Shown piece by piece: positions 2,197 through 62,055 of a DNA stretch of 64,000 nucleotides. The notes beneath the pieces are model-generated. The model was not told the DNA's origin, ran no database searches, and was given only the letters and a program-made list of their open reading frames with translations. The stretch comes from an uncultured Calditrichaceae bacterium (GTDB taxonomy: Bacteria; Calditrichota; Calditrichia; RBG-13-44-9), in contig CAZUZS010000016.1 of assembly GCA_964624795.1 (NCBI GenBank), positions 6,855-70,854 of the forward strand. The letters are read 5' to 3'. Made by a program: the position numbers and the translations under genes. The first letter of the stretch is position 1; every line of letters begins with the position of its first letter.

Positions 2197-3628
2197 ATTC
2201 TCCGGTTTGTTCAAATTCGGATTGAGGAACAACTGCCAGCGACAGCCCAAAAAAGAAAGCAGCCGAAACGATGATCCCGTAGAAGGCAGGGTCCAATCCG
2301 AAAGGTAAATCGATTTGAAATATTTGTAGAAAGATGGTGGTCAGCCCGCCGGATAACATGCTCCAGAATGCCGCCGAGGCGTTCGATTTTTTCCAGAAAT
2401 AAGCGCCCAGGGTGGGAACAAACAATCCCGATACCATGAATCCGTAGGCGTAAAGAATGGCGTTCAGCACATTGGTAAAAGAGGCGGCGATCACGATGGC
2501 GGTTGCCCCGATCAGCAGGGTTGCCACCTGCGAAATCCGCATGATCTGTTTGTCGGTGACCGATTTAAGAAAATATTTTTCAAGAATGTCATTCACAAAA
2601 TTGCCGGACGACGCCATCAGGCAGCTATCGGCAGTGGACATGATTGCCGAGAAGTAGGAAGCCACCACAATTCCGGTAATGCCAACCGGGAGCACGTTTT
2701 TTATCAGGAGCGGCAGCCCCATTTCGGGATCAACCTGCGGAAAGAGCACTCGTCCGCACAATCCTAAAAAAACGCCCAGGAAGGCCATCACCGGGTATTC
2801 GAAAAATCCGGCAATATACCAGGCGCGTTTGGCTTCCCGGGTATCCTTGCAGGCGTACATTCGCTGGTAGAGCGTCATAGCCACCAGCCAGATGGGAATG
2901 ATGGTGACCATCCAGTTCACAAATGTCGCCCACTCGATGTTCGTAAGGCTGAAAAATTCGGGGGGAAGGACATCCGCCAGCGCCGAAAACCCGCCGATGC
3001 GGATGAGCGCCAGGGGCGTTGCTAAACAGATCAATCCGAAAAGAAGGATAATCCACTGCACGGTGTCGGTGTAAATCACTGCCTTCAAGCCACCCAGAAC
3101 CGTGTAGCCGATGATCACAATGGCAATCACATAAAGCGAAAATTGAAGCGGCGAGATCCCGAATGGCGCTTTGTCGATGAGCGTGGCGGAAGCCAGCTTG
3201 GCGCCGGCCAGTACCTGGGCTCCGGTAAATCCCATGTAGCCAATCCCGGAGATGAGCGAAGCCGCAATCGCGACGCGACCGTTGTAACGAAAGCGCAGAA
3301 AATCCGGGTAGGTCATCATGCCGTGTTTGGCATCAATGGCCTTAATTTTGGGAATGATGAAAACCGCCGAGAGCCACGCACCCACCAGTCCGGTGAACAG
3401 CAGCCAGCTTCCGGCCAGCCCGATGGTAAATCCCAGCCCGCCCAACCCGATGGAAAAACCGCCGCCTACATCGGTGGCCACGATTGACAGTCCCACATGA
3501 GTGGACGAAATCGAGCGGCTTCCCACGTAGTAATCTTCCGCATTTTTGTTCCGGCGGAAAAAGTAGTAGCCGATTCCCAGCACCGTCATCATGTAAAGGC
3601 CGAATATGGCGTAATCAATCAAATGCAT
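2177..3628 (-). CDS. Sodium:solute symporter (SSS) family protein
   Basis: 483 aa with about 13 hydrophobic segments; [22 protein letters not shown] and SAIMSTADS motifs. Confidence 0.9.
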
Positions 3629-3642
3629 GAGCGCTAACCGGT

Positions 3643-4977
3643 TTAATTGCCCTTACCATTCCCATTTTTCCTTCTTCTCATGCGGTCGATATTGCGGGGA
3701 ATGAGCGAATAGGTTTTATCGTGGTCGGACATGAGCTGCGCAATGCCCACCGCCCTGTCCTCTTCGGCATCTTCAAGTTTAAGATACAGCCTGCAGTTGT
3801 CACAGTCCCGGTCGCAAAACACCGGCTCATAGGAATCCGGCTCTTTGTAGGTAGTAATCACTCCTTCATAATTTCGCAGGATCACCTTGTTGGTTGACCA
3901 GGAAATGAGGTATTGCGGCATCACCGGGATTTTGCCGCCGCCGCCCGGCGCATCGATCACAAATGTGGGAACCGCGAATCCACTGGTGTGCCCGATCAGG
4001 CTTTCGATGATTTCGATGCCCTTACCAATCGGGGTGCGGAAATGGGAGAGCCCTTCCGACAAGTCGCACTGATAGAGGTAGTAGGGCCGCACCCGATTCT
4101 GCACCAGTTTGTGTACCAGCGATTTCATGATCCGGGGGCAATCGTTCACGCCGGCCAGCAACACCGATTGATTTCCCAGCGGGATTCCGGCATCCGCCAG
4201 CTTGCGCAGCGCCTCGCGGGATGAAGCGGTAATTTCCCGTGGATGGTTGAAGTGTGTATTGATCCACAACGGGTGGTGTTTCTTCAACATTTCAACCAAT
4301 TCATTCGTTATCCGGTAGGGCAGCACCACCGGCATGCGGGTTCCGATGCGAACCACTTCCACGTGCGGTATCTTTTCCAGCTCACTCAGAATCCAGTCCA
4401 GATAATCGTCCGACAGCATGAACGGATCGCCGCCGGAGAGAAGCACATCCCGCACCGCCGGTGTGTTCCGGATATATTCCAGGCCCTTCAGCATATCTGC
4501 CCGGACCGGAATATGGTCCCGGTCGCCCACTTTTCTTTTGCGTGTGCAGTGCCGGCAATACATGGAGCACACGTTACTGATATGAAAAAGCACCCGGTCG
4601 GGATAGCGGTGGGTGATACCCGGAACCGGACTATCGCGGTCCTCCGCCAGCGGATCTTTCATATCGTGCTTTTGAACCATGGTCTCCGCCGGTTGTGGAA
4701 AAGCCTGCTTGAACACCGGGTCGTTCTGGTAATTCTCGGTTTCAATCAGCGACAAGTAGTAGGGCGTTATCGAAAGCGGGAACTTGCTGATCGTCTCATC
4801 CAGCATTTCCCTTTTCTCCTTACTGAAGCGGATGCCCAGTAATTTCTGGAAAGTACCGATGTCCCGAACGCTATTGCGGATCTGCCATTTCCAATCCTTC
4901 CAATTGGCGATCAATGCCGTGGAACTTATTTTTTCAGCGATTTCCTGCTGCTTATCATTAAAAATCATTTCTATCAA
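3643..4977 (-). CDS. ablA: Lysine 2,3-aminomutase (radical SAM, PLP)
   Basis: CSMYCRHC radical SAM motif; [21 protein letters not shown] and [10 protein letters not shown] motifs; linked to ablB. Confidence 0.93.
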
Positions 4978-5540
4978 CTCCGAGTTGTTTTATTAAAAAT
5001 TCGTGTTCGATCAATTATTCAGGCAGAGCACATTTGACCGGCGCGCACACGGGCGGGGCAATTCCTGCAATTAATCACAAGTGACCGGACATCAGGCGCC
5101 CAATGCAAAAGGCTAACCGGCTGTCTGCCCCAAAATTATTTCAGATTATTAAAGTGGGATGAAAGCCCAGATGTGGACAAAACTTTGCGACAAATTGGTG
5201 AAGGATGATAAAGCTCCTTTGGAGCATTTGCTGAAAATCATGAGAAACAAGCCGGTGTCCCGCAACTGGTTATTGCACTTCAGGCGAAATTTCAGAAAAT
5301 TTATTAAAAGTGGGGTTTCGACTCGTTTTATTTTGCTCATCTTTGTTCGCAAATCATTTATCTTCAACACCATCAATAATATAGAGAAGACCAGCAGGAG
5401 CATCAAGGATTAATATATTCTTCCACAATTGCGGCTTGTTGCCGGACGGCGTCCGGCACTAATCTTTGGCGTTTCACCGCCGCCTCGAAATAAATATTTA
5501 CTGACAAAGATGGGGTGCAAAACAAAATCAATAAACAAGA

Positions 5541-5560
5541 AACCCCGCCGCAGCGGGGTT
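5541..5560 (-). terminator. Intrinsic terminator downstream of rpoZ
   Basis: aaccccgc-cgca-gcggggtt 8-bp stem followed on the minus strand by TCTTGTTT. Confidence 0.7.
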
Positions 5561-5568
5561 CGCAAAAT

Positions 5569-5868
5569 CTATCGTTTGGTCGGTTCGTAATGGAAATTCA
5601 ACTGGTCCGTTAAAAACTCCCGCTGGGCGGTGATCATCGGATTTTCCTCAGATTCTATCGGTTCTTCCTCCTCCACCCGCTCTTCTTCGGTGTTCAGGAA
5701 TTCTTCTTCGAATTCTCCTTCCAGTTCCTCCAGAATCTGGCGATCCCTTTTCTTCTGAAAAAGCTCTTCGTTGATCTGCCGTGCCCGGCGGGCCACTACC
5801 ATGGCCGATTCGTATAAATTGACCGAATTTTCCAAGAACTGTTTTATATCTTGCGTCTCTGCCGGCAT
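5569..5868 (-). CDS. rpoZ: DNA-directed RNA polymerase subunit omega (Bacteroidota/Chlorobi-like)
   Basis: NLYESAMVVARRARQIN motif, acidic middle segment and NPMITAQREFL C-terminal motif. Confidence 0.8.
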   Translation of the reverse strand: MPAETQDIKQFLENSVNLYESAMVVARRARQINEELFQKKRDRQILEELEGEFEEEFLNTEEERVEEEEPIESEENPMITAQREFLTDQLNFHYEPTKR

Positions 5869-6182
5869 AAATTCTCTCCTTCTCTTCGTACTAATTTTTT
5901 AGCCTGCAAATATAAAGAAAGAATAGAATTATTCCAAAGGATTTAATTTTTGCAGGGAATGGCATTTGGGGTGAATAGCCGCAGTGTAATTACTGCGAGA
6001 TTGGAACGCCCGAGTAATGGAGTTGCGCATTCCGCAAAGTGGAAACGGCAGATCACCCGACACCCATTCGCTGCAACATATCGCTGCCCACGAGCAAGGC
6101 TTTGCCAAAATCTACGTTCCCCTATTGGAAAGTATATTGCCATCTCGTATATTCTGCAGACATCTATTGGAAAGGAAGAATC

Positions 6183-7973
6183 ATGTTTCAGAGTGTCGTT
6201 CAGATCCTGCTCAACAGCATTGAAAGCTACCCCGACAAGCCCGCCCTGCTCTACAAAGAAAACGGCAAATACCTGGAAATATCCTACCGTGAATTGGGAA
6301 ACCGGATTGAGAAGATCGCCCGCGGATTGCTCGCCTCGGGATTACGGGCCGGAGACCGAATTGCCATTCTTTCTTACAACCGCCCGGAATGGACGATCAG
6401 CGATTTCGCTATTTTTTCGATGGGCGGGGTTGTGGTGCCTATTTACCACACACTGCCGCCAAACCAGATTGCCTACATTTTGAAGGATGCCGGAGTGCGG
6501 GCGATTTTTGTGGAAGACCAAACTCAGTATGAAAAAATCACACAAATCAAATCCACCTGCCCGGAGCTGGAATTTATTTTCCCATTTGGAGAAATCGATT
6601 CTGCACAGGAAGAGTTGGCCTCGTTCACCGAACTGCTGGAACGGGGAGAGGCTCACCGCCAGGCGAACCCCGGCCTGTATCGCCAAACAGTAGATGCAAT
6701 TGATCCCGCAGCCATTTGCAGCCTGGTTTACACATCCGGCACCACCGGTAATCCCAAAGGTGTTATGCTAAACCACGAGGGATTTGTGATCGACATTGTA
6801 GATAGCGAAGCGATTTTTGGAATCTACCCGGAAGATGTGTTTCTTTCGTTCCTGCCGCTCAGCCACCTCTACGAAAGATTGGGCGGGCACTGGTGCCCGC
6901 TTTATCGGGGCGCTACCATCGCTTATGCAACCGATATTACCACCGTTGTCGATAATATCCAGTTGGTGCGGCCGACCGTAATGGTAAGCGTGCCAAGGCT
7001 CTATGAAAAGATCAGCAGCAGCGTGATTGAACAAGTGGAATCCGGTTCCGGGCTGAAGAAGAAACTGTTCTACTGGGCGTTGAAAACCGGGCGGCGCTAT
7101 CACGACAAGAAATTCGAAAATCGTTCGGATGTTTTCACTTCGGCAAAATACCGTCTGGCCGACAAAGTCGTTTTCAGCAAGATCAAGAAGAAACTGGGCG
7201 GCCGTTTCCGCTTTCCCATCTCCGGCGGGGCGCCGCTGCCAACCGAAACCCTGAAATTCTTCGAGGCAATCGGGCTTCAAATCATTGAAGGATACGGAAT
7301 GACCGAAACCCATCTCATTATTGCGCTCACCCCGCCCGGGAAAACAAAATACGGCTCGTGCGGTAAAACGATCCCTCACGTGGAAGTGAAAGTAGATGCA
7401 GATGGTGAAATTTTGGTGCGGGGCAAAACCGTCATGTGCGGATATTACAACAGACCGGAGCTCACCAGTGAGGCAATTGACAAAAACGGATGGCTGCACA
7501 CCGGCGACATCGGCCATCTGGACGAGGACAACTACCTTTTCATCACCGACCGCAAGAAGAACATTCTGGTCACCGCCGGGGGCAAGAACATTGCGCCGGC
7601 GCCCATTGAGAATGTCCTCAAACTAAGCAAATACATAGACGATATCTGCCTGATTGGCGACAAGCGCAAATTCATAAGCGCCATCATCATTCCCAATTTT
7701 GATCATTTGAAAAAATGGGCTGATGAAAACGGGATACCGGACGGCGACAATCAAAAGCTGGCCAGCGATCCGAAGGTTCAACAAATGATGGCGGACAAGA
7801 TCGAAGCGCTTCAGACCGACTTTGCCCGTTACGAAAAAGTGAAGAAATTTTTGTTACTGCCTGAGCCGCTCACCATTGAAAATGGCGAACTGACCCCCAG
7901 CCTGAAAATCAAACGCAACGTGGTGGAGAAGCGTTTTAAATCCGAGATCGACAAGCTGTACGCAGAGTTATAA
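6183..7973 (+). CDS. Long-chain fatty acid--CoA ligase (AMP-binding)
   Basis: YTSGTTGNPKG, EGYGMTE, WLHTGDIG and DRKK motifs. Start moved to MFQSVV behind AGGAAG (track start 6039). Confidence 0.92.
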   Translation: MFQSVVQILLNSIESYPDKPALLYKENGKYLEISYRELGNRIEKIARGLLASGLRAGDRIAILSYNRPEWTISDFAIFSMGGVVVPIYHTLPPNQIAYILKDAGVRAIFVEDQTQYEKITQIKSTCPELEFIFPFGEIDSAQEELASFTELLERGEAHRQANPGLYRQTVDAIDPAAICSLVYTSGTTGNPKGVMLNHEGFVIDIVDSEAIFGIYPEDVFLSFLPLSHLYERLGGHWCPLYRGATIAYATDITTVVDNIQLVRPTVMVSVPRLYEKISSSVIEQVESGSGLKKKLFYWALKTGRRYHDKKFENRSDVFTSAKYRLADKVVFSKIKKKLGGRFRFPISGGAPLPTETLKFFEAIGLQIIEGYGMTETHLIIALTPPGKTKYGSCGKTIPHVEVKVDADGEILVRGKTVMCGYYNRPELTSEAIDKNGWLHTGDIGHLDEDNYLFITDRKKNILVTAGGKNIAPAPIENVLKLSKYIDDICLIGDKRKFISAIIIPNFDHLKKWADENGIPDGDNQKLASDPKVQQMMADKIEALQTDFARYEKVKKFLLLPEPLTIENGELTPSLKIKRNVVEKRFKSEIDKLYAEL

Positions 7974-7998
7974 GTCTCCAAATAGACCTTTCCCGCAA

Positions 7999-8028
7999 CC
8001 TCCTCCCCCAATGCACCAGGGGAGGAGG
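7999..8028. terminator. GC-rich hairpin after the acyl-CoA ligase (terminator or REP-like element)
   Basis: cctcctcccc / ggggaggagg 10-bp stem with a 10-nt loop; no clear U-tract. Confidence 0.4.
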
Positions 8029-8180
8029 AGAGAAGTGCGGTGCAGAATCGTCGCAGATAAACATTTATTCAGCATGAAAAACTTAGCATTGATTTTTTGT
8101 ATTAATTTCTTGGCGCCTTTGCGGCTTGGCGAGAGATTTTTGGCAAATCTTCAGTAAGAATAAAATGAAAGGAAAATAAA

Positions 8181-9368
8181 ATGCCGAAATTATCCAAATG
8201 GGATTTGAACTCCCGCTTTGTCCACAGCGGCAGCGATATAGATTATTCGAAAGTGCGCACGCCCAATCCCCCCATATTCCAGACCAGCAACTTTCTATAC
8301 GAAGATGTGGAAAGCGGCACGGACATCCTGGTGGGGAAAAAACCGGGCTTCATCTACAGCCGTTACAGCAATCCAACCGTGGATGTGCTGAATGCAGTGA
8401 TGGCCGATATGGAGGGCGGCGAGGCGGCACTCAGTTTTGGCACCGGGCTGTCCGCCATCTCCTCGGCGGTAATGGCCTACTGCAAACCGGGCGATCATAT
8501 CGTTTCCTCATCGCTCATTTACGGCGGAACATTCCATCTCTTCCAGGATCACTTTGCCCGGCTGGGCGTGGAGACCACATTTGTCGATCCCACCGATCTG
8601 GAGCAGGTGGAAGCCGGCATTCGTCCCAACACCCGCATTCTCTATACCGAGCCGCTGGCCAATCCCACGCTGGTCAGCTCCGACATTTTCAGTTGGGCAG
8701 TTTTGGCACACCAGCACAAATGCAAACTCCTGGTGGACAATACGTTCACGCCCCCGCCAATCTTCCTGCCGCTGGATGCCGGGGCGGATGTGGTGCTTCA
8801 CAGCGCCACCAAGTACCTGGGCGGGCATTCCGACCTCACTGGCGGGGTGGTCGTGGCCTCAAAGGAGGAGATGGAAAAAATTGAGCCATATTTAAAATAC
8901 CACGGTGGGGTGATCTCGCCCATGATTGCCTGGCTGCTGGTGCGGGGCATTCGCACCATGGGAATTCGCCTGGAGCGGCAGTGCGACAATGCCATGGCAA
9001 TTGCTCAATTCCTGGAAAAACATACCGCGGTAGCGAAGGTAAATTACGCCGGACTGCCGACGAACCCGCAGTATGAATTTAATCAGCGGCATTTCAAGAA
9101 ATTCAGCGGAATGCTCTCTTTCGAGGTGAAAGGTGGATTTGCGGCAGCTAAGAAGGTCATGCAGAGGCTGGAGCTGATTCTTTTCACAGTCAGCCTTGGC
9201 GATGTTGCCAGCCTGGTTTCGCATCCCGCATCCACATCCCATATTTATCTCACCCCGGAAGAGCGGGCCGCTATCGGCGTGACGGAAGGCTTGCTGCGGC
9301 TGTCGGTGGGCATCGAATCTGCAGACGATCTGATCAACGACCTGGACAATGCGCTTAGCGGGCTGTGA
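8181..9368 (+). CDS. PLP-dependent trans-sulfuration enzyme (methionine gamma-lyase / cystathionine gamma-synthase family)
   Basis: YSRYSNPT, VDNTF, HSATKYLGGHSD (PLP lysine), VSLGDVASL and LLRLSVGIE motifs. Confidence 0.9.
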   Translation: MPKLSKWDLNSRFVHSGSDIDYSKVRTPNPPIFQTSNFLYEDVESGTDILVGKKPGFIYSRYSNPTVDVLNAVMADMEGGEAALSFGTGLSAISSAVMAYCKPGDHIVSSSLIYGGTFHLFQDHFARLGVETTFVDPTDLEQVEAGIRPNTRILYTEPLANPTLVSSDIFSWAVLAHQHKCKLLVDNTFTPPPIFLPLDAGADVVLHSATKYLGGHSDLTGGVVVASKEEMEKIEPYLKYHGGVISPMIAWLLVRGIRTMGIRLERQCDNAMAIAQFLEKHTAVAKVNYAGLPTNPQYEFNQRHFKKFSGMLSFEVKGGFAAAKKVMQRLELILFTVSLGDVASLVSHPASTSHIYLTPEERAAIGVTEGLLRLSVGIESADDLINDLDNALSGL

Positions 9369-9500: not shown

Positions 9501-10301
9501 TTGAATTACGTTCTCATTTTCCTGTTAGCCATTCTTTCCTCCACCGCCAGCGCCATGGTAGGCCTGGGCGGCGGACTGCTGTTGATCCCATTCCTGATTC
9601 TGATCTTTGACCTGCCGGTGAAATATGTAGCGGGCACCATGCTGTTTGCCATGGTGCCGTTTACGTTAGTCGCCACTATCCGCAATTTCCGGCAAGGATT
9701 CGTCAATCTCAAAATCGGAATGATTATGGAAGCCGGTTCCGTCCTGGGGGTGATCTCGGGAGCCAATTTCTCAACAATGATTCCCGATTTTGCTTTGAAA
9801 ATTCTGTTTGTGCTGGTCGTTCTGTACCTCATGTTCACGCTCAAGATTCCGTCCGATTCGCCATACAATTATGTGGCCCGTGTCTTCCGGGTGCTCAATC
9901 ATATCCCGCCTACCATAAAATGCGACCCGTGCCGGGGGAACAACAGGCTCAGCATTCCGGCATTAATATTGGTTGGAATGACCGCCGGACTTTTCAGCGG
10001 AATGCTGGGGATTGGAGGCGGATTTCTAAAAACGCCGGTGCTTATAGTGGGGGTTATGCTGGCGCCAAAGCTGGCAGTCGGAACTGCGCTTTCCATGATC
10101 TTCGTCACCGCCTCCTTTGGCACCATTACACATGCCTTCCTGGGACATATTTTTTACCCGATCGCACTTATCGTTTCCGCCGGTATGATTATCGGTGCCT
10201 ACTGGGGAACGAAAATCATGAAAACCCTTCCCGAAGAACGGATAAAGAAATTCATTTTCTACGCCATGCTTGCCGCGGGAGTGTTGACGTTTTTTAGATA
10301 G
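9501..10301 (+). CDS. TauE/SafE (TSUP) family sulfite exporter
   Basis: Two repeats of the GLGGG/GIGGG motif; hydrophobic throughout; TTG start. Confidence 0.85.
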   Translation: MNYVLIFLLAILSSTASAMVGLGGGLLLIPFLILIFDLPVKYVAGTMLFAMVPFTLVATIRNFRQGFVNLKIGMIMEAGSVLGVISGANFSTMIPDFALKILFVLVVLYLMFTLKIPSDSPYNYVARVFRVLNHIPPTIKCDPCRGNNRLSIPALILVGMTAGLFSGMLGIGGGFLKTPVLIVGVMLAPKLAVGTALSMIFVTASFGTITHAFLGHIFYPIALIVSAGMIIGAYWGTKIMKTLPEERIKKFIFYAMLAAGVLTFFR

Positions 10302-10398
10302 TACAGTGATTAAATTAATTTGGCATTCCCCCTCTCAAAATTCGCTTTTATAAAAATTTCCCTTTTCCTATATTCCAACCGAAATTAAGCTGAAGGAT

Positions 10399-11343
10399 TT
10401 GATGATGGACGAAAATTCCGGCAAACTGACCCGCACACCGGTGGAAGCGCTGGATGAGATTTTGGGTAAGCCATTCAAAGTACTGGACGACGGCTTTGTC
10501 CGGGTCATCGATTACATGGGTTCGGATGAGTCCATCGTGCAGGCGGCGCGTGTTTCCTACGGCAAAGGAACCAAGAAAGTACACCAGGATCGGGGGCTGA
10601 TCCGCTACCTGATGCGGCATCGCCACACCACACCGTTCGAAATGTGCGAGATCAAGCTGCACATTCGGGTACCCATGGATTGCTGGCGGCAGTGGATACG
10701 GCACAGAAGCGCCAATGTCAACGAATATTCCACTCGCTATTCAGTGGCCATCGACGCCGCCCAGGTCACGCTGCCGGGCGAATGGCGTTTGCAGGCTACC
10801 GGCAACCGGCAGGGCAGCGCCGGGCTCCTCGACGAAAAAACAGGCGAAGAATTCAGCCGAAAAGAAAAAGAGCTGCAGCAACTGGCGCGGCAGGTTTACA
10901 ACAAGCGGCTGGAAGCCGGGATCGCCCGTGAACAGGCGCGCAAAGACCTGCCGCTATCCACCTACACCGAAGCTTACTGGAAAATCGACTTGCACAACCT
11001 GCTTCATTTCCTGGGGCTGCGCATGGATATTAACGCCCAGTACGAAATCCGCAGCTACGCCAATATTATCGGCAACGAAATCGTCAGCCGCTGGTGCCCC
11101 ACGGCGTGGGAGGCATTCAATGATTACCACATGAATGCGATCAGTTTTTCACGTCTGGAGCTGGAGATTATTCAGGCGGTTGCCGCCGGGAAAAACAACG
11201 TTGCTGTGGAACGTGCCCGCAGTTTCGGCTGGCTGGAGGAGAAAGAAGGCCGCCTGAAAAGCAACCGGGAAAGAACAGAATTCGAGGAAAAGCTGATCGG
11301 GCTGAAGTTGTCCATTCCATGGCGCGAGCTTCTTTCCATGTGA
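10399..11343 (+). CDS. thyX: FAD-dependent thymidylate synthase
   Basis: RHR-x7-S signature (RHRSANVNEYS); HTTPFE, AREQAR and AQYEIR motifs. Confidence 0.95.
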   Translation: MMMDENSGKLTRTPVEALDEILGKPFKVLDDGFVRVIDYMGSDESIVQAARVSYGKGTKKVHQDRGLIRYLMRHRHTTPFEMCEIKLHIRVPMDCWRQWIRHRSANVNEYSTRYSVAIDAAQVTLPGEWRLQATGNRQGSAGLLDEKTGEEFSRKEKELQQLARQVYNKRLEAGIAREQARKDLPLSTYTEAYWKIDLHNLLHFLGLRMDINAQYEIRSYANIIGNEIVSRWCPTAWEAFNDYHMNAISFSRLELEIIQAVAAGKNNVAVERARSFGWLEEKEGRLKSNRERTEFEEKLIGLKLSIPWRELLSM

Positions 11344-11357
11344 GATTGCATGAAGCT

Positions 11358-11502
11358 TACCACGGAATCTCACAGATCTTTCACAGACGCGCATTTGCTG
11401 CTCAGATATTGGTGGTTTAACAACGATGGAGAATCCGATGTTGAAATTTCATTGTGCGAGCGACCGCACCATTTTTTGTGTCTTTCGTGTATTTCGTGGT
11501 TA
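11358..11502. repeat. Short element bounded by imperfect inverted, internally iterated repeats
   Basis: Left end accacggaatctcacagatctttcacaga; right end tttgtgtctttcgtgtatttcgtggtt; no credible ORF between. Confidence 0.45.
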
Positions 11503-11518
11503 AAAATATTATTCATCA

Positions 11519-12697
11519 ATGTTCTCATCACGTTTAAACTGGAATCAGGAAACCAACCGCCTGGTGCGCATACTGGAAGAAAAGCGACGCGCCGGTGAAA
11601 TAATTCTGGATTTGACCGAATCCAATCCAACCCGTGCCGGATTTAAATATCCCGAACAGGAAATTTTGGGTGCACTGTCGCAGACAGAATCCCTGCGCTA
11701 TGAACCTTCTCCGCGGGGACTGTTGAAAGCAAGAGAAGCAGTTGCCGCCTACTACAGAATGCGCGGGAAAGAAACCGATACCGATTCAATTTTCCTCACT
11801 GCCAGCACCAGCGAGGCCTACGCCGATCTGTTCAAACTGCTTGCCGATCCAGGGGACGAGATCCTGGTTCCCGCCCCCGGTTACCCGCTTTTCGAGATGC
11901 TGAGCGCACTGGAATCGGTAAAACCGATTTTCTATCCGCTGAAATACGATGAAAACCACGGTTGGCGGATCGATCTTGAAATGCTGCAAATGAGTGTCAG
12001 CACTAAAACCCGTGCCGTTGTCGTGGTGAATCCCAACAATCCCACCGGTTCCTATCTGAAAATCGGGGAGCTGGAGATCATAAATGAGATTTGCGCCGAA
12101 CACCAACTGGCGCTGATTGTGGACGAGGTTTTCTCCGATTACCGCTTATCTGCGAACGAACAGATTGTCTTGTCGGCTGCCGGCAACCAGCCGGTGCTTA
12201 CATTTGTGCTGAACGGCTTCTCAAAAATCCTGGGCCTGCCGCAGCTCAAACTGGCCTGGATTCTGGTCAACGAACCGCAGTCGCTTGTTTCAGATGCCAT
12301 TCACCGGCTGGAATTTATCGCAGACACCTTCCTTTCGGTTTCCGCAAGTGTGCAGCACGCCGCCCCGGAACTGTTTCGGTTGCGGGATTCCATTCAAAAA
12401 CAGATCCAATCCCGCACAAACGACAATTATAAATATCTGGAAATTACCGGAAAACAGTCCGGCACTTTCCGTGTTCTGAAACGGGAGGGCGGCTGGTATG
12501 CGGTTGTGCAACTTCGCGGAGCGCAGTCTGCCGAAACAACCAGTTACAGGCTGCTGGAAGAAAAAAATGTCTATCTGCATCCCGGTTATTTCTATAATTT
12601 TAAGAAGGATGAATTTCTGGTAGTCAGTCTGCTCCCACCGGTTGAGAGTCTCCGGGAAGGAACTTCCCGGCTGGCAGCGTTATTGAAAAATAGCTAA
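11519..12697 (+). CDS. Class I/II PLP-dependent aminotransferase
   Basis: NPNNPTG, VDEVF and LNGFSKILGLPQLKLAW motifs. Confidence 0.88.
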   Translation: MFSSRLNWNQETNRLVRILEEKRRAGEIILDLTESNPTRAGFKYPEQEILGALSQTESLRYEPSPRGLLKAREAVAAYYRMRGKETDTDSIFLTASTSEAYADLFKLLADPGDEILVPAPGYPLFEMLSALESVKPIFYPLKYDENHGWRIDLEMLQMSVSTKTRAVVVVNPNNPTGSYLKIGELEIINEICAEHQLALIVDEVFSDYRLSANEQIVLSAAGNQPVLTFVLNGFSKILGLPQLKLAWILVNEPQSLVSDAIHRLEFIADTFLSVSASVQHAAPELFRLRDSIQKQIQSRTNDNYKYLEITGKQSGTFRVLKREGGWYAVVQLRGAQSAETTSYRLLEEKNVYLHPGYFYNFKKDEFLVVSLLPPVESLREGTSRLAALLKNS

Positions 12698-12720
12698 TAC
12701 TTCCTTTCAAGGAGCAAATT

Positions 12721-13734
12721 TTGAACAGCCGTCAACGGATCAAAAAAATCATTGGAGGGGAAGCTGCCGACCGCTGCGGTTTCTGGCTGGGAAATCCCCA
12801 CCGGGACACTCTGCCCATCTGCCATAAATATTTCGGGACATCCACCGAGGAGGAACTTCACCAAAAACTGGGCAGTGATTTCCGTTGGATTTGTCCGCAA
12901 TACATGGATACCACCTACCGCCACCCGGACGGAAAGGGGATTTTCGACCTATGGAAGCACAAGAAATCGCTCGGGGAGGCGGGACCGCTTGCTACCTGCG
13001 AGAATGTAGAGGAGGTTGAGCAGTTCGATTGGCCAAATCCCGATTACCTGGATTTTGGCGAGGTGCGGACGGTTCTGGAAAATGCCGGCGATTACTACCG
13101 GGCGAGCGGCTTCTGGGCGCCATTTTTCCATGACGTCATGGATTTGGTCGGAATGGAAAACTACCTCGTCAAAATGTTCACCAACCCAGTGATCATTCAC
13201 GCCATTACCGCGCGGGTATGCGGTTTTTACCTGGAAGCAAATGAGCGTTTTTACCGCGCCGCCGGCGATCTGGTGGACGGCTATTTTTTCGGAAACGATT
13301 TCGGCACGCAAATCGATCTGCTTCTCACGCCGCAGCAGTTCGATGATTTCATTCTGCCCTGGTTTCGCAAGTTTATCCGGCAGGCACACGATCACGGCTG
13401 CCAGGTGATTCTTCATTCCTGCGGATCGATACATCGCATCATTGGCAAACTAATTGAGGAAGGCGTGAATTGCCTGCACCCCTTGCAGGCCAAAGCCCGG
13501 AATATGGACGCCGACACGCTGGCACGGGATTTCAAGGGGCAGATTGCCTTCATGGGTGGAATAGACACCCAGGATCTGCTGGTACATGCATCGCCGGCTG
13601 AAGTAAAAGAGGCGGTGCGCCGGGTGAGGCAATTGCTCGGGCCCGGCTACATTGTGAGTCCCAGCCACGAGGCACTGCTTCCTGACGTGCCGCCGCAAAA
13701 TATCGCCGCAATGGCGGAGGCGGCGCAGGAGTGA
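12721..13734 (+). CDS. Uroporphyrinogen decarboxylase-like (URO-D/MtaA/CmuA) family protein
   Basis: FGNDFG, LHSCGS, MGGIDTQ and SPSHEALLPDVP motifs of the URO-D/MetE TIM-barrel family. Confidence 0.8.
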   Translation: MNSRQRIKKIIGGEAADRCGFWLGNPHRDTLPICHKYFGTSTEEELHQKLGSDFRWICPQYMDTTYRHPDGKGIFDLWKHKKSLGEAGPLATCENVEEVEQFDWPNPDYLDFGEVRTVLENAGDYYRASGFWAPFFHDVMDLVGMENYLVKMFTNPVIIHAITARVCGFYLEANERFYRAAGDLVDGYFFGNDFGTQIDLLLTPQQFDDFILPWFRKFIRQAHDHGCQVILHSCGSIHRIIGKLIEEGVNCLHPLQAKARNMDADTLARDFKGQIAFMGGIDTQDLLVHASPAEVKEAVRRVRQLLGPGYIVSPSHEALLPDVPPQNIAAMAEAAQE

Positions 13735-13854
13735 GGGGCCGAGACTCTTCTGTACCGGATATTTCTATTTTGAAATGAATTTACTGGATGAGGGGCGATT
13801 CCGGGTCAAGCGCTAATGCTCGTCGTCTCTCATCTAAATCGCAAAAAACAAAAG

Positions 13855-59538: not shown

Positions 59539-60384
59539 TCAAACATCTTTGTAGGTAAGGACTCGTCCCCACAGGCTTTTGGTGCCCCATAATCCGGAGC
59601 GAAGACATTCCAATTGTACTATCTGACTGTGATCGACAAAGAGATTGACCTCCGGCCCATAATTTTTTATGTACCACGCGAAAACATCCGGATCAGCGGC
59701 TTCGAACATCGGTTTTTCCAGCCCCAGCGAGTTGATGATTTTTGCTACAACACCAGTGCGCCATTCATTCACATTTTCAGTAATACCTTCCGATTCAATC
59801 ATAATCATGTAGGCCCCTGCGTCGATAAAGCGCTTGGCCTGCAAGATAGCCCATTCCGGATCGCTGGTGCCTTCCGCTTCCAACTCTGCGACGGTGGTTG
59901 CGCCACCCGCACCGAATTGAATACCGACTTCCGGTTTCGCTTTCAGGCCAGCCTTCTGCACTTTCTCTATCAATCGCAGCCAGTCATCTGTCGGGATGGA
60001 AATAAATCCGCTTGAAATTTCAATGATGTCGAAGCCGATTTCCTTGCATTCGCGGATATAATAATCCACGGCTTCTGCACCCTGGGTTAGCACATGTTCA
60101 ATGAATCCGCCGGTGGAAACCAGAACTTCATGCTGATGGCACAATTCAAGTAGCTCTTTCACAGCCTTGCGAGGCATCAGACTAAAAGAGCCGCCGGCAA
60201 ATTTGAGCACGTCTACATAATTGCCCATTGTTTCCAGAACATCCTGCAAATACCGTTTCCCCATAACAGAATAGTATGGTCCCCGAATCTCTGTAACACC
60301 GTTTTTGCGGGGCTTGGAACTGCGTTTATTTATGCTCAATTTGCTAAATGCTCTTTCTTCCAGGTCAGTCTTAACTTGCTCCAT
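59539..60384 (-). CDS. Phosphosulfolactate synthase (ComA) family protein, HSA32-like subgroup
   Basis: KPRKNGVTEIRGPYY, VDVLKFAGGS, GFDIIEIS, KAKPEVG, MIESEG and NLFVD motifs. Confidence 0.85.
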   Translation of the reverse strand: MEQVKTDLEERAFSKLSINKRSSKPRKNGVTEIRGPYYSVMGKRYLQDVLETMGNYVDVLKFAGGSFSLMPRKAVKELLELCHQHEVLVSTGGFIEHVLTQGAEAVDYYIRECKEIGFDIIEISSGFISIPTDDWLRLIEKVQKAGLKAKPEVGIQFGAGGATTVAELEAEGTSDPEWAILQAKRFIDAGAYMIMIESEGITENVNEWRTGVVAKIINSLGLEKPMFEAADPDVFAWYIKNYGPEVNLFVDHSQIVQLECLRSGLWGTKSLWGRVLTYKDV

Positions 60385-60405
60385 TTTTTTATACCTCCAT
60401 AAAAT

Positions 60406-61776
60406 TTAATAATTCCGAACTGCCAACAGCAATCGGGTCAGCTCGGTGATTTGGATGAATTCCAGATTGTCAATCGCGCCGATAATCTCATCCTGCAACG
60501 AACTGGCTATTTGGGATTCACCGAGTCTCCTGAATTTCTCAACCACCCTCCCCCAGGAGACTGGCCTTGTAACAAATCCTTCGTAATCTTTTTTCTCTTT
60601 TTTGAGTACCTCCCCGTTTTTAAAGGAGATAGAAATTCGGCATGGCATCTCCTCTGGAAAGCGTTGGCTGAACTCAGGCGAAGGACTTACCTTGATTTTT
60701 CGAATCAAATCCTGAACATCCGGCCGCCGGATTCGCTCGGGAAGATACTGCGCCGGCATCACCTGCCCGTCCAGCAATGCCACGGCCACCATATAATGCA
60801 GGCTGTGATCGGCCTCTTCTTTGGTTCGGACCACAGTTTTGTCACCTTCCTCCCCCCCGCCGATGATGTTGAAGGCCACGTCGAATGTATCGATTTCGAT
60901 CCGCTCAATTTCGCTGGCCTTTGTTTGGTGTTCCTCTTTTAATTCCAACGCGCCTTCAATTGTGGCCTGAGAATGGATTTCGGCATTGTATTTTTTCACA
61001 ATGGTGCGGGTTACTCTTTCCAGATTTTCCTTTCCCCAGTCTATTTTGAACTGTCCGGCAATGGCGTCCATAAATCCTTTGTTTCCCTCGAACACACCAA
61101 GCGGGCCGGTTATGCCCCGCATAGCCAGGAAAGCCGCATGGGTGGCACCCAAAGCGGTATTTGGGTAAGCCAGCCCCTTCCAATTGGAGAGCATCCCGGT
61201 GCGGGTTACGCGCAAGGAGTTGTAAGATGTACCACTAATTGCGATTGCATTTGCAGTTTGTTCTTTATTCAGCCCAAGTGCCCGGGAAACACCAGCAGCC
61301 ACTGCGTATGCACCTTGAGTCGTATGATCGAAACCTTTTGCCCGGACCGGTGCAACGTCGCTTAAACGGCATTGGATATGATAGGCTGCCGCCAGTGCGG
61401 TCATGAATTCGCGCCCGTTTTGCTTTGCATATTCGCTGGCAGACAGGACAGACGAAATATTATCGCTGGGATGGCATGTTTCGCCCTTTGCAAGATAGCT
61501 GTCGTTGAAATCCAGGTAACGAACCAGAGCGCCGTTAAAAAAGGCAGCCCGGTCGGGAGATGATTTACCACTGCCAATTAATGTGCAATGGTCATTGCCG
61601 CCAAAATCCTTGGTCTGTGCCTCTACGGCCCGAATCGGTTCTGCCCCCAGCGCACCGATGGCGCAGCCCAGCGCATCCAGCGTACGAATCTTTAGATGGC
61701 CCCGAGCGGAAGATGATAAATCGCCATAGGAGGATTCCGCGACAAAATCTGCAAGGGATTCTACCATATACGCCAT
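60406..61776 (-). CDS. MmgE/PrpD family protein (2-methylcitrate dehydratase-like)
   Basis: LVRYLDFNDSYLA..TCHPSDN, GFDH, KYNAEIHSQ and ADHSLHY motifs. Confidence 0.9.
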   Translation of the reverse strand: MAYMVESLADFVAESSYGDLSSSARGHLKIRTLDALGCAIGALGAEPIRAVEAQTKDFGGNDHCTLIGSGKSSPDRAAFFNGALVRYLDFNDSYLAKGETCHPSDNISSVLSASEYAKQNGREFMTALAAAYHIQCRLSDVAPVRAKGFDHTTQGAYAVAAGVSRALGLNKEQTANAIAISGTSYNSLRVTRTGMLSNWKGLAYPNTALGATHAAFLAMRGITGPLGVFEGNKGFMDAIAGQFKIDWGKENLERVTRTIVKKYNAEIHSQATIEGALELKEEHQTKASEIERIEIDTFDVAFNIIGGGEEGDKTVVRTKEEADHSLHYMVAVALLDGQVMPAQYLPERIRRPDVQDLIRKIKVSPSPEFSQRFPEEMPCRISISFKNGEVLKKEKKDYEGFVTRPVSWGRVVEKFRRLGESQIASSLQDEIIGAIDNLEFIQITELTRLLLAVRNY

Positions 61777-62055
61777 ACCCCACACTCCCCTTTAAAATGC
61801 TAAAACTTTATTAATGATAAATTTTCTGTATGAAGGAAGGATGAAGAATTCAGGCCGCTGTTTATGCATGAATCGCAAGGTGTCCGCATCAAAATGGGAC
61901 AAAATCCCGGGAGAGGGGTTGTTGGTTCCCAAAGATAAGATGCCGGAAAATTCAAAAGAAGTTGGCCTTCAAGCTCTTCGGCGGTTCACTGACGAGCGCT
62001 AATCCCAATTTTGGAGGCACGATACAGAAGTGTTGTTTCCTGCAAGAAATATCGA

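Follow-up and report, generated by a model that had tools for sequence, protein, structure and literature searches.

A conserved pair of PrpD-like and HSA32-type ComA-fold genes in a Calditrichaceae bacterium and across prokaryotic phyla

Phosphosulfolactate synthases of the ComA family (ComA, XcbB, and YitD; EC 4.4.1.19; structures 1QWG and 1U83; Xaut_4872) are triosephosphate isomerase (TIM)-barrel proteins with a Lys in the motif EVGK-K and a RESGxG loop, and their genes have Com, YitC, or Xcb genes as neighbors. ComA works by Michael addition, assisted by a metal, to an alpha,beta-unsaturated carboxylate. Plant HSA32 is heat-induced and aggregation-prone, stabilizes HSP101, and is required for long-term heat memory; we know of no enzyme activity for it. 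Within the MmgE/PrpD superfamily, PrpD/MmgE (EC 4.2.1.79; 1SZQ and 5MUX) is a dehydratase needing a second enzyme, aconitase, for rehydration, while cis-aconitate decarboxylase (CAD/IRG1), iminodisuccinate epimerase, and (S)-(R)-methylsuccinate isomerase are, to our knowledge, not paired with any ComA-fold protein. The residues that all characterized members have in common hold the C4-dicarboxylate part of the substrate and stabilize an enolate intermediate (PMC12290011, PMC6789909), and PrpD carries out only the dehydration half-reaction and requires a separate hydratase (Horswill and Escalante-Semerena 2001, as cited in PMC12290011). Here, we analyzed a 64,000-nucleotide stretch (hereafter the window) of contig CAZUZS010000016.1 from an uncultured Calditrichaceae bacterium (assembly GCA_964624795.1), in which a gene coding for a PrpD-like protein is followed on the minus strand by a gene coding for a ComA-like protein. 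The pair is an ancient, widespread, and exceptionally constrained two-enzyme module assembled from two known superfamilies. It is undescribed, no account of a PrpD-like/ComA-like pair having been found in the literature.

The ComA-like gene (59539..60384, minus strand; 281 amino acids) was assigned to the ComA family by Pfam (PF02679, 295 bits; cut-off 25), and its product scored 98.5 bits against the arch_ComA equivalog TIGR03849, whose cut-off of 280 was not reached. Protein Data Bank (PDB) matches to Methanocaldococcus jannaschii ComA and Bacillus subtilis YitD reached 59 and 43 bits, versus 235 bits and 48% identity for HSA32 of Phoenix dactylifera (XP_008813774.1). Identity to M. jannaschii ComA, YitD, and Xanthobacter XcbB was about 25% (range 22–28%), and identity to the solved ComA/YitD structures 1qwg, 9cm1, and 1u83 was 22–25% by Foldseek. 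An exhaustive search covering 1.84 billion cluster representatives returned 1892 clusters related to the ComA-like protein, and the P. dactylifera sequence (P0145, HEAT-STRESS-ASSOCIATED 32) was among the best full-length ones. In a maximum likelihood tree (LG+C20), M. jannaschii ComA, YitD, and XcbB formed the outgroup with a branch support of 100/99, and two plant HSA32 sequences nested, on a long branch, within the bacterial clade linked to PrpD. These results agree with the initial annotation, which had likened the N-terminus of the protein to plant HSA32 more than to ComA from methanogens or Bacillus, and the clustering with canonical ComA that it had named as a refutation was not observed. 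Matches on plasmids were bimodal in the same sense: those at 55–72% identity came from Salinibacter, Methylosinus, Methylocystis, and about 22 haloarchaeal megaplasmids, versus 24–28% for the coenzyme M organisms Xanthobacter Py2, Mycolicibacterium NBB4, and Nocardioides JS614. No coenzyme M pathway context (ComB/ComC/ComDE, YitC, or XcbC/D/E) was detected by Pfam within about 8 kb of the gene. From these comparisons, the protein is almost certainly not a coenzyme-M-type phosphosulfolactate synthase, and genome annotations that call it a coenzyme M biosynthesis enzyme are almost certainly wrong.

Alignment of the sequences defined a core common to the whole ComA family (KPR, YxDxxKF, GG, FxE, ExS, xEV, ExxE, FEA, and LExxR). 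The HSA32-type clade has, in addition, an RGPYY segment, a 10-residue insertion after the EVG strand, a 6-residue deletion (IESE------G) that removes the RESGxG loop, and a new C-terminal tail (WGxxxxWGRVxTYK). The initial annotation had taken the N-terminal KPR..RGPYY as a sign of HSA32. The RGPYY part of this signature is indeed clade-specific, but KPR does not discriminate, since it is also present in YitD (NKPRETG) and XcbB (SRPRKRG). Residue Q156 (in EVGIQFG) replaces the second Lys of the canonical EVGKK/EVGSK, and throughout the clade this position is occupied by Gln or a hydrophobic residue. The replaced Lys, K137 in M. jannaschii ComA, is reportedly the proposed general acid of that enzyme. 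The ComA-like protein keeps D58, K61, E96, E122, E152, E197, E199, E228, and R262; among 48 sequences D58, K61, E122, and E228 were invariant, and E96, E152, E197, and E199 were at least 90% conserved. This retained acidic and Lys core is presumed to constitute a metal (Mg2+) and enolate site. An AlphaFold2 model of the protein was a TIM barrel (predicted local distance difference test, pLDDT, 88.8) with 1qwg as the top fold match (E 2e-17), followed by 9cm1 and 1u83, at target-normalized template-modeling (TM) scores of 0.83–0.86. The 60 chains of 9cm1 were considered as a possible natural cage and this was rejected, the structure being a designed nanoparticle built on ComA.

Plant HSA32 (Arabidopsis At4g21320 and the P. 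dactylifera protein) belongs to the same ComA-fold clade as the bacterial protein, and both have the RGPYY-type insertion, a long beta5-alpha5 insertion, and the 6-residue loop deletion. They differ in that family-invariant residues kept by the bacterial proteins are changed in the plant ones (pEvG to pQfA, iEsEG to iDaDD, and TGG to TGD), and in that the C-terminal WGxxxxWGR tail of the bacterial protein is missing from the plant proteins. The replaced acidic residues of plant HSA32 are consistent with the absence of a known enzyme activity, whereas the bacterial protein looks like an intact enzyme. A further difference is that plants have no MmgE/PrpD partner (PMC12290011). The ComA-like protein is an intact and probably enzymatic prokaryotic counterpart of plant HSA32, whose biochemical role has been sought since 2006. 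HSA32-type genes were also observed in fungi (Aspergillus fumigatus, 9753–13761 of locus L095) and in the dinoflagellate Durinskia (P0222), so relatives of HSA32 in eukaryotes are not limited to land plants. In A. fumigatus the gene contains introns, identity was about 51% along the longest exon that aligned, and no PrpD was encoded within 10 kb. The Durinskia protein carries an N-terminal extension resembling a targeting sequence. An A. fumigatus protein of 862 amino acids (P0166), consisting of a ComA-like part and a fungal transcription-factor domain, was considered as a Rosetta-stone fusion and discarded as a probable gene-model merger.

The PrpD-like gene (60406..61776, minus strand; 456 amino acids) was recognized by the Pfam domains MmgE_PrpD_N (242 bits) and MmgE_PrpD_C (162 bits). 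None of the NCBIfam PrpD equivalogs reached its cut-off (182.6 vs. 950, 148.9 vs. 575, and 121.1 vs. 458 bits), and the best PDB matches were at 96 bits to PrpD/MmgE and at 92 bits to CAD, that is, no closer to the former than to the latter. On the basis of these scores, the protein can be assigned to the MmgE/PrpD superfamily, but not as an orthologue of 2-methylcitrate dehydratase. It has the same two-domain fold, motifs, and Asp/His/Lys set as PrpD/MmgE, keeping the superfamily active-site residues D89, H102, H151, K200, and K261, which correspond to D93, H103, H159, K207, and K272 of CAD. Dehydratase-type motifs (GFDH, AEIHSQ, and ADHSLHY) were also present, together with LDFND. The His equivalent to His159 of CAD was not in register, being offset as in PrpD (GFDH), and an Ile occupied the position of CAD His277, with a His one residue later, again as in PrpD (AEIHSQ). 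The residues that bind the C4-dicarboxylate and support the enolate are common to the PrpD-like protein and to CAD/IRG1, iminodisuccinate epimerase, and (S)-(R)-methylsuccinate isomerase (PMC12290011, PMC6789909). We conclude from this residue pattern that the PrpD-like protein is probably catalytically active, with a di- or tricarboxylate-like acid as its substrate. As with PrpD, a second enzyme would be needed; the partner in the window is a ComA-fold protein and not an Fe-S aconitase, and no prpB or prpC (methylcitrate cycle) genes were found in the window.

The initial annotation had placed the MmgE/PrpD gene 21 bp upstream of the ComA-family gene, with no methylcitrate synthase, PrpB, or ComB/C genes nearby, and had described the two as an orphan two-gene pathway, a reading that a PrpD linkage unique to this genome would have refuted. 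The coordinates and the spacer were confirmed by open reading frame (ORF) analysis, by Pfam, and by reading of the DNA: the PrpD-like gene ends at TAA 60408–60406, the ComA-like gene starts at ATG 60384, and the intergenic spacer (60385..60405, minus strand) has exactly 21 nt. The spacer contains the ribosome-binding site of the ComA-like gene, GGAGG (60394–60398), 9 nt 5' of its ATG, and no terminator-like or promoter-like site was found between the two genes. Neither citrate synthase, methylcitrate synthase, PrpB, ComB, nor ComC was detected by Pfam within about 8 kb, and tblastn of the whole 64-kb window revealed no homologue of XcbC/D/E, citrate synthase, aconitase, fumarase, 2-oxoglutarate dehydrogenase (OGDH), FolE, HPPK, DUF488, or Nramp. 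A single operon is the best explanation for this arrangement of the PrpD-like and ComA-like genes.

The linkage extends far beyond this genome. Relatives of the ComA-like gene were present in at least 528 species-level genomes (one genome was scanned per species), and the ComA-like protein had matches in more than 8000 clusters of proteins formed at 90% identity. Linkage was counted in the best 80 of the 528 species matches, which were 76–91% identical to the ComA-like protein and spanned at least nine phyla (Calditrichota, Chloroflexota, Thermodesulfobacteriota, Verrucomicrobiota, Nitrospirota, Planctomycetota, Acidobacteriota, Armatimonadota, and Sysuimicrobiota). A PrpD-like gene, 58–74% identical to that of the window, was located directly upstream and on the same strand in 70 of these 80 loci; three of the other ten have no upstream sequence, and the figure becomes 70 of 77 when only loci with at least about 1 kb upstream of the ComA-like gene are counted. 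Altogether, the pair was found in at least 11 bacterial phyla and, on plasmids, in haloarchaea. Annotated plasmids carrying it include pHM300 of Haloferax mediterranei, pOB3b2 of Methylosinus trichosporium OB3b, and pSR116 of Salinibacter ruber, as well as plasmids of Halopiger and Methylocystis; H. mediterranei, M. trichosporium OB3b, and S. ruber are cultured and tractable carriers. The association also persists, rearranged, at 35–42% identity. A 42%-identical ComA-like gene from a Nitrososphaeraceae-related branch (L085, 7001–12456) is convergent with a PrpD-like gene, with 4 nt between their ends; this PrpD-like gene is the last one of a 2-oxoacid:ferredoxin oxidoreductase operon (gamma-alpha-beta), and the other side is occupied by an inositol-monophosphatase-family gene. 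Downstream of a deep-branching, 35%-identical gene (L096, 2301–8381) come three MmgE/PrpD paralogues in tandem, together with genes for a GntR/FCD regulator and a solute-binding protein. The Halorussus PrpD gene is 3.5 kb from the ComA-like gene, with a sulfurtransferase among the genes between them. No adjacent PrpD was detected in Nitrososphaeraceae, Manganitrophaceae, or a fungus at the loci examined. On pOB3b2 (L088, 5349–12502), the pair lies between IS5/IS6 transposases and an IS66 element, with sdhCDB and DUF488 just beyond, and it looks like a mobilized two-gene cassette in this cultured methanotroph. In one long-read Chloroflexia metagenome-assembled genome (L002/L040, about 6627–7767), the PrpD-like gene was called as pieces of 236 and 72 amino acids; either the gene is a pseudogene with a frameshift, or the assembly has a homopolymer error.

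The two proteins have diverged together. Pairwise divergences of the ComA-like and PrpD-like proteins in 71 loci were correlated (r = 0.91, Mantel p about 0.001), and in the same loci 99 of 281 positions of the ComA-like protein and 91 of 456 positions of the PrpD-like protein were at least 97% invariant. Synonymous sites were saturated (proportion of synonymous differences, pS, at least 0.75) even against a Calditrichaceae relative whose ComA-like protein is 91% identical (L003), the G+C content of third codon positions (GC3) ranged from 0.45 to 0.85 following the host, and nonsynonymous divergence (dN) was only 0.06–0.18. Recent horizontal spread was considered as the source of the high identity and was rejected, because synonymous sites are saturated and GC3 is host-adapted. 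These same features argue that the pair has long been resident in its hosts and is under very strong purifying selection. Since the ComA-like protein remains 76–91% identical across phyla despite saturated synonymous sites, it must do something important. The tree was also incongruent with the phyla (Limnocylindria, for example, groups with Acidobacteria), and this incongruence, together with the plasmid copies found between insertion sequence elements, indicates that the cassette has moved between lineages in older transfers. A larger conserved island was ruled out, since the 429 neighbor proteins fell into 286 clusters at 60% identity and not one flanking gene of the window recurs even in L003. 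Conservation is limited to the pair, with nothing conserved around it, so that the description as an orphan two-gene pathway was apt.

The genes next to the pair provided clues to its substrate. After dereplication, the commonest neighbor families were ferredoxin-reductase/NDH-2-type flavoproteins, MFS transporters, COX1, DUF488, Nramp, and enzymes of the tricarboxylic acid (TCA) cycle. Genuine citrate synthases adjoin the pair on the same strand in one Anaerolineaceae and one Brocadiaceae genome. The same holds, in one genome each, for a genuine AcnA (Acidiferrales), an aspartase/fumarase-family gene (Terriglobia), and OGDH E1/E2 (Chloroflexia); in L002/L040, OGDH E1/E2 genes follow the ComA-like gene, and succinate dehydrogenase genes lie a few kb from the pair on the Methylosinus plasmid. 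TctA/TctB tricarboxylate transporters occurred in two contexts, with GntR/FCD regulators also nearby. The TCA-cycle enzymes and tricarboxylate transporters among the neighbors suggest that the substrate is of the citrate type. The carboxylate or sulfonate intermediate proposed as substrate in the initial annotation would fit the active-site set of the PrpD-like protein, these neighbors, and the rewired site of the ComA-like protein.

On this basis, we tentatively favor a model in which the products of the pair are enolate-type enzymes that act one after the other on a single citrate-like acid, the first by dehydration and the second by addition of water or sulfite. The pair would form a short, self-contained pathway for a small poly-anionic acid, distinct from the biosynthesis of coenzyme M or sulfolactate. 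In the first step, the PrpD-like enzyme would use the enolate mechanism of its superfamily. Its substrate would contain a succinate-like diacid moiety and would most likely be a hydroxy-tricarboxylate of the citrate type, from which loss of water would produce an aconitate-type alpha,beta-unsaturated acid. In the second, the ComA-like enzyme, with the acidic/Lys core of its family and rebuilt substrate loops, would catalyze a Michael-type addition across the double bond. Water would be the preferred nucleophile, which would result in an aconitase-like isomerase needing no Fe-S cluster, and sulfite the main alternative. This two-step model is the simplest that makes use of the dehydration-only reaction of PrpD, the Michael addition of ComA, the co-divergence of the two proteins, and the TCA context. 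If correct, either an Fe-S-free aconitase-type reaction or a sulfonate route would be a new reaction in central or sulfur metabolism. Its more specific form, in which the pair is an Fe-S-independent aconitase-type isomerase, is unlikely taken by itself. The PrpD-like enzyme would then dehydrate citrate, 2-methylcitrate, or homocitrate to a cis-unsaturated acid, and the ComA-like enzyme would add water back in a metal-assisted Michael reaction, yielding the iso-acid. Plant HSA32 would be what remains of the ComA-like enzyme after catalytic decay and without its partner. Such an isomerase would provide an oxygen- and iron-independent back-up for a step otherwise always carried out by labile [4Fe-4S] enzymes.

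Several observations weigh against the two-step model. TCA neighbors were found in only about one tenth of the loci, and in locus L071 a genuine AcnA stands beside the pair, so there the pair is not simply replacing aconitase. We know of no ComA-fold enzyme that is a hydratase. A haloacid dehalogenase-type (HAD-IA) hydrolase was encoded directly 5' of the pair in six loci (L031, L042, L043, L046, L055, and L066; about 3500–4610), all from Desulfobacterota except for one Chloroflexi genome, with DUF488 preceding the hydrolase in the Desulfobacterota loci. This upstream hydrolase may hint at a phosphorylated intermediate, and phosphatase neighbors, together with the KPR common to true phosphosulfolactate synthases, would fit a phosphorylated substrate derived from phosphoenolpyruvate (PEP). 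The model also leaves unexplained the neighboring DUF488, ferredoxin-reductase/NDH-2-type flavoprotein, and COX1 genes, as well as a gene for GTP cyclohydrolase I (FolE) lying immediately 3' of the ComA-like gene in 26 of the 80 loci, from three phyla.

The alternative that survives best, although we consider it rather unlikely, is that the ComA-like enzyme still forms (2R)-phospho-3-sulfolactate from PEP and sulfite, and that the PrpD-like enzyme processes this sulfonate. The PrpD-like enzyme would treat the sulfonate as a carboxylate mimic, carrying out an elimination, a dehydration, or an epimerization of phosphosulfolactate or sulfolactate, with the help of a phosphatase encoded nearby or elsewhere, and the outcome would be a small sulfonated acid or the detoxification of sulfite. 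Formation of phosphosulfolactate is the sole proven chemistry of the ComA fold, and the family-invariant acidic/Lys residues and KPR are kept. However, the Lys of EVGKK/EVGSK and the RESGxG loop, which are retained in all three references of the phosphosulfolactate synthase type, bacterial and archaeal alike, have been lost throughout the clade, and the TIGR03849 score is far under the cut-off. The spacing of sulfolactate is that of a C4 diacid, the substructure common to substrates of the PrpD family (PMC12290011). The HAD hydrolase 5' of the pair in six loci and the inositol-monophosphatase-family gene beside the ComA-like gene in L085 would likewise be in agreement with this route, but no ComB, ComC, ComDE, or XcbC/D/E gene accompanies the pair, either here or at the loci examined. 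Sulfur genes were found close to the pair in Salinibacter (DsrE, twice), Halorussus (the sulfurtransferase), and Haloferax (cysK), whereas no sulfur-related family was among the 25 most frequent neighbor Pfam families, in which TCA families were present.

It is improbable that the ComA-like protein is an analogue of the C–C lyases PrpB or isocitrate lyase, completing a methylcitrate-type cycle with the PrpD-like enzyme and the citrate synthase and aconitase of the host. PrpD and PrpB are the two enzymes specific to that cycle, PrpB was not found nearby, and citrate synthase and AcnA genes adjoin the pair at some loci. Nevertheless, the PrpD-like protein is not an orthologue of 2-methylcitrate dehydratase, and the two steps would be non-consecutive, a poorer fit to the observed co-divergence (r = 0.91). 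Mg-dependent TIM-barrel lyases (PrpB 1ujq, PEP mutase, and PA4872) did appear among the weaker fold matches, but at a level (TM about 0.5) equaled by many unrelated TIM barrels.

A role of the pair in pterin metabolism, either in supplying or modifying a side-chain acid of a pterin-type cofactor or in some other way, is quite improbable. It would account for GTP cyclohydrolase I immediately downstream in 26 of the 80 loci, which belong to Anaerolineales, Acidobacteriota, Limnocylindria, and Calditrichota. GTP cyclohydrolase I is often accompanied, in one string, by a pteridine-reductase-like short-chain dehydrogenase/reductase (SDR; NF006598, 196 bits) and HPPK (TIGR01498, above cut-off). Against this, GTP cyclohydrolase I is absent from the window, from all plasmid-borne copies, and from most phyla, only two to three independent FolE families are left after dereplication, and the pair comes with neither FolB, FolP, nor any enzyme known to act on pterin side chains. 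A common stress regulon (MarR, flavoprotein reductase), and not a common chemistry, may lie behind the link. A string of pterin genes with a divergent MarR regulator was observed at 3430–8915 of locus L014, which is typical of about 10 Anaerolineae loci, and also in L082 and L079; the order in L014 is ferredoxin-reductase-like flavoprotein, PrpD-like, ComA-like, GTP cyclohydrolase I, pteridine-reductase-like SDR, and HPPK.

Stress genes (Dps, AhpC, Usp, pirin, and Nramp) are scattered near some copies of the pair. It is most improbable that the ComA-like protein acts, as plant HSA32 does, chiefly as a stress protein without catalysis that stabilizes a disaggregase, the PrpD neighbor being functionally unrelated: plant HSA32 does work through HSP101 stability with no known enzyme activity, and Dps, Usp, AhpC, and pirin do occur near some copies, but the bacterial proteins retain every family-invariant catalytic-type residue whereas plant HSA32 has altered several, the PrpD linkage is conserved, the two proteins co-diverge, and MmgE/PrpD is absent from plants (PMC12290011), which implies loss of the partner on the plant side.

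In the window, the ORF listing gave the PrpD-like gene as 60406..61785 (459 amino acids, GTG start) and the ComA-like gene as 59539..60384 (281 amino acids), both on the minus strand. The start of the PrpD-like gene is most likely ATG 61776, because a ribosome-binding site (GGGGAG, 61785..61790, minus strand) lies 8 nt 5' of it and the L003 orthologue begins with MAYLV. The candidate 3-codon N-terminal extension from GTG 61785 (61777..61785, minus strand) is probably untranslated, since this GTG overlaps the ribosome-binding site and orthologues begin at the methionine of MAY. An AT-rich intergenic region of 270 nt (61786..62055, minus strand) 5' of the pair is the probable promoter region; no match above chance to the sigma-70 consensus was found in it, and Rfam gave no match, riboswitches included, 5' of the pair in the window with E values allowed up to 1, and only one tRNA in a scan of 21 related loci. 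A terminator-like hairpin, GGGATTTTGTCCC, followed by a T-run (61896–61908, minus strand), is located 3' of the upstream His-rich permease gene, which suggests that the pair is transcribed apart from that gene. According to Pfam, the flanking genes have no relation to known ComA or PrpD pathways: upstream are a DsbD_2-like permease and an SDR, and downstream are a secreted pyrroloquinoline quinone (PQQ)-type beta-propeller protein, an S10 peptidase, a CPBP protease, an MFS transporter, a P-type ATPase, and a phosphoketolase. Matches in sequencing runs were confined to DNA metagenomes from salt marsh and marine sediment.

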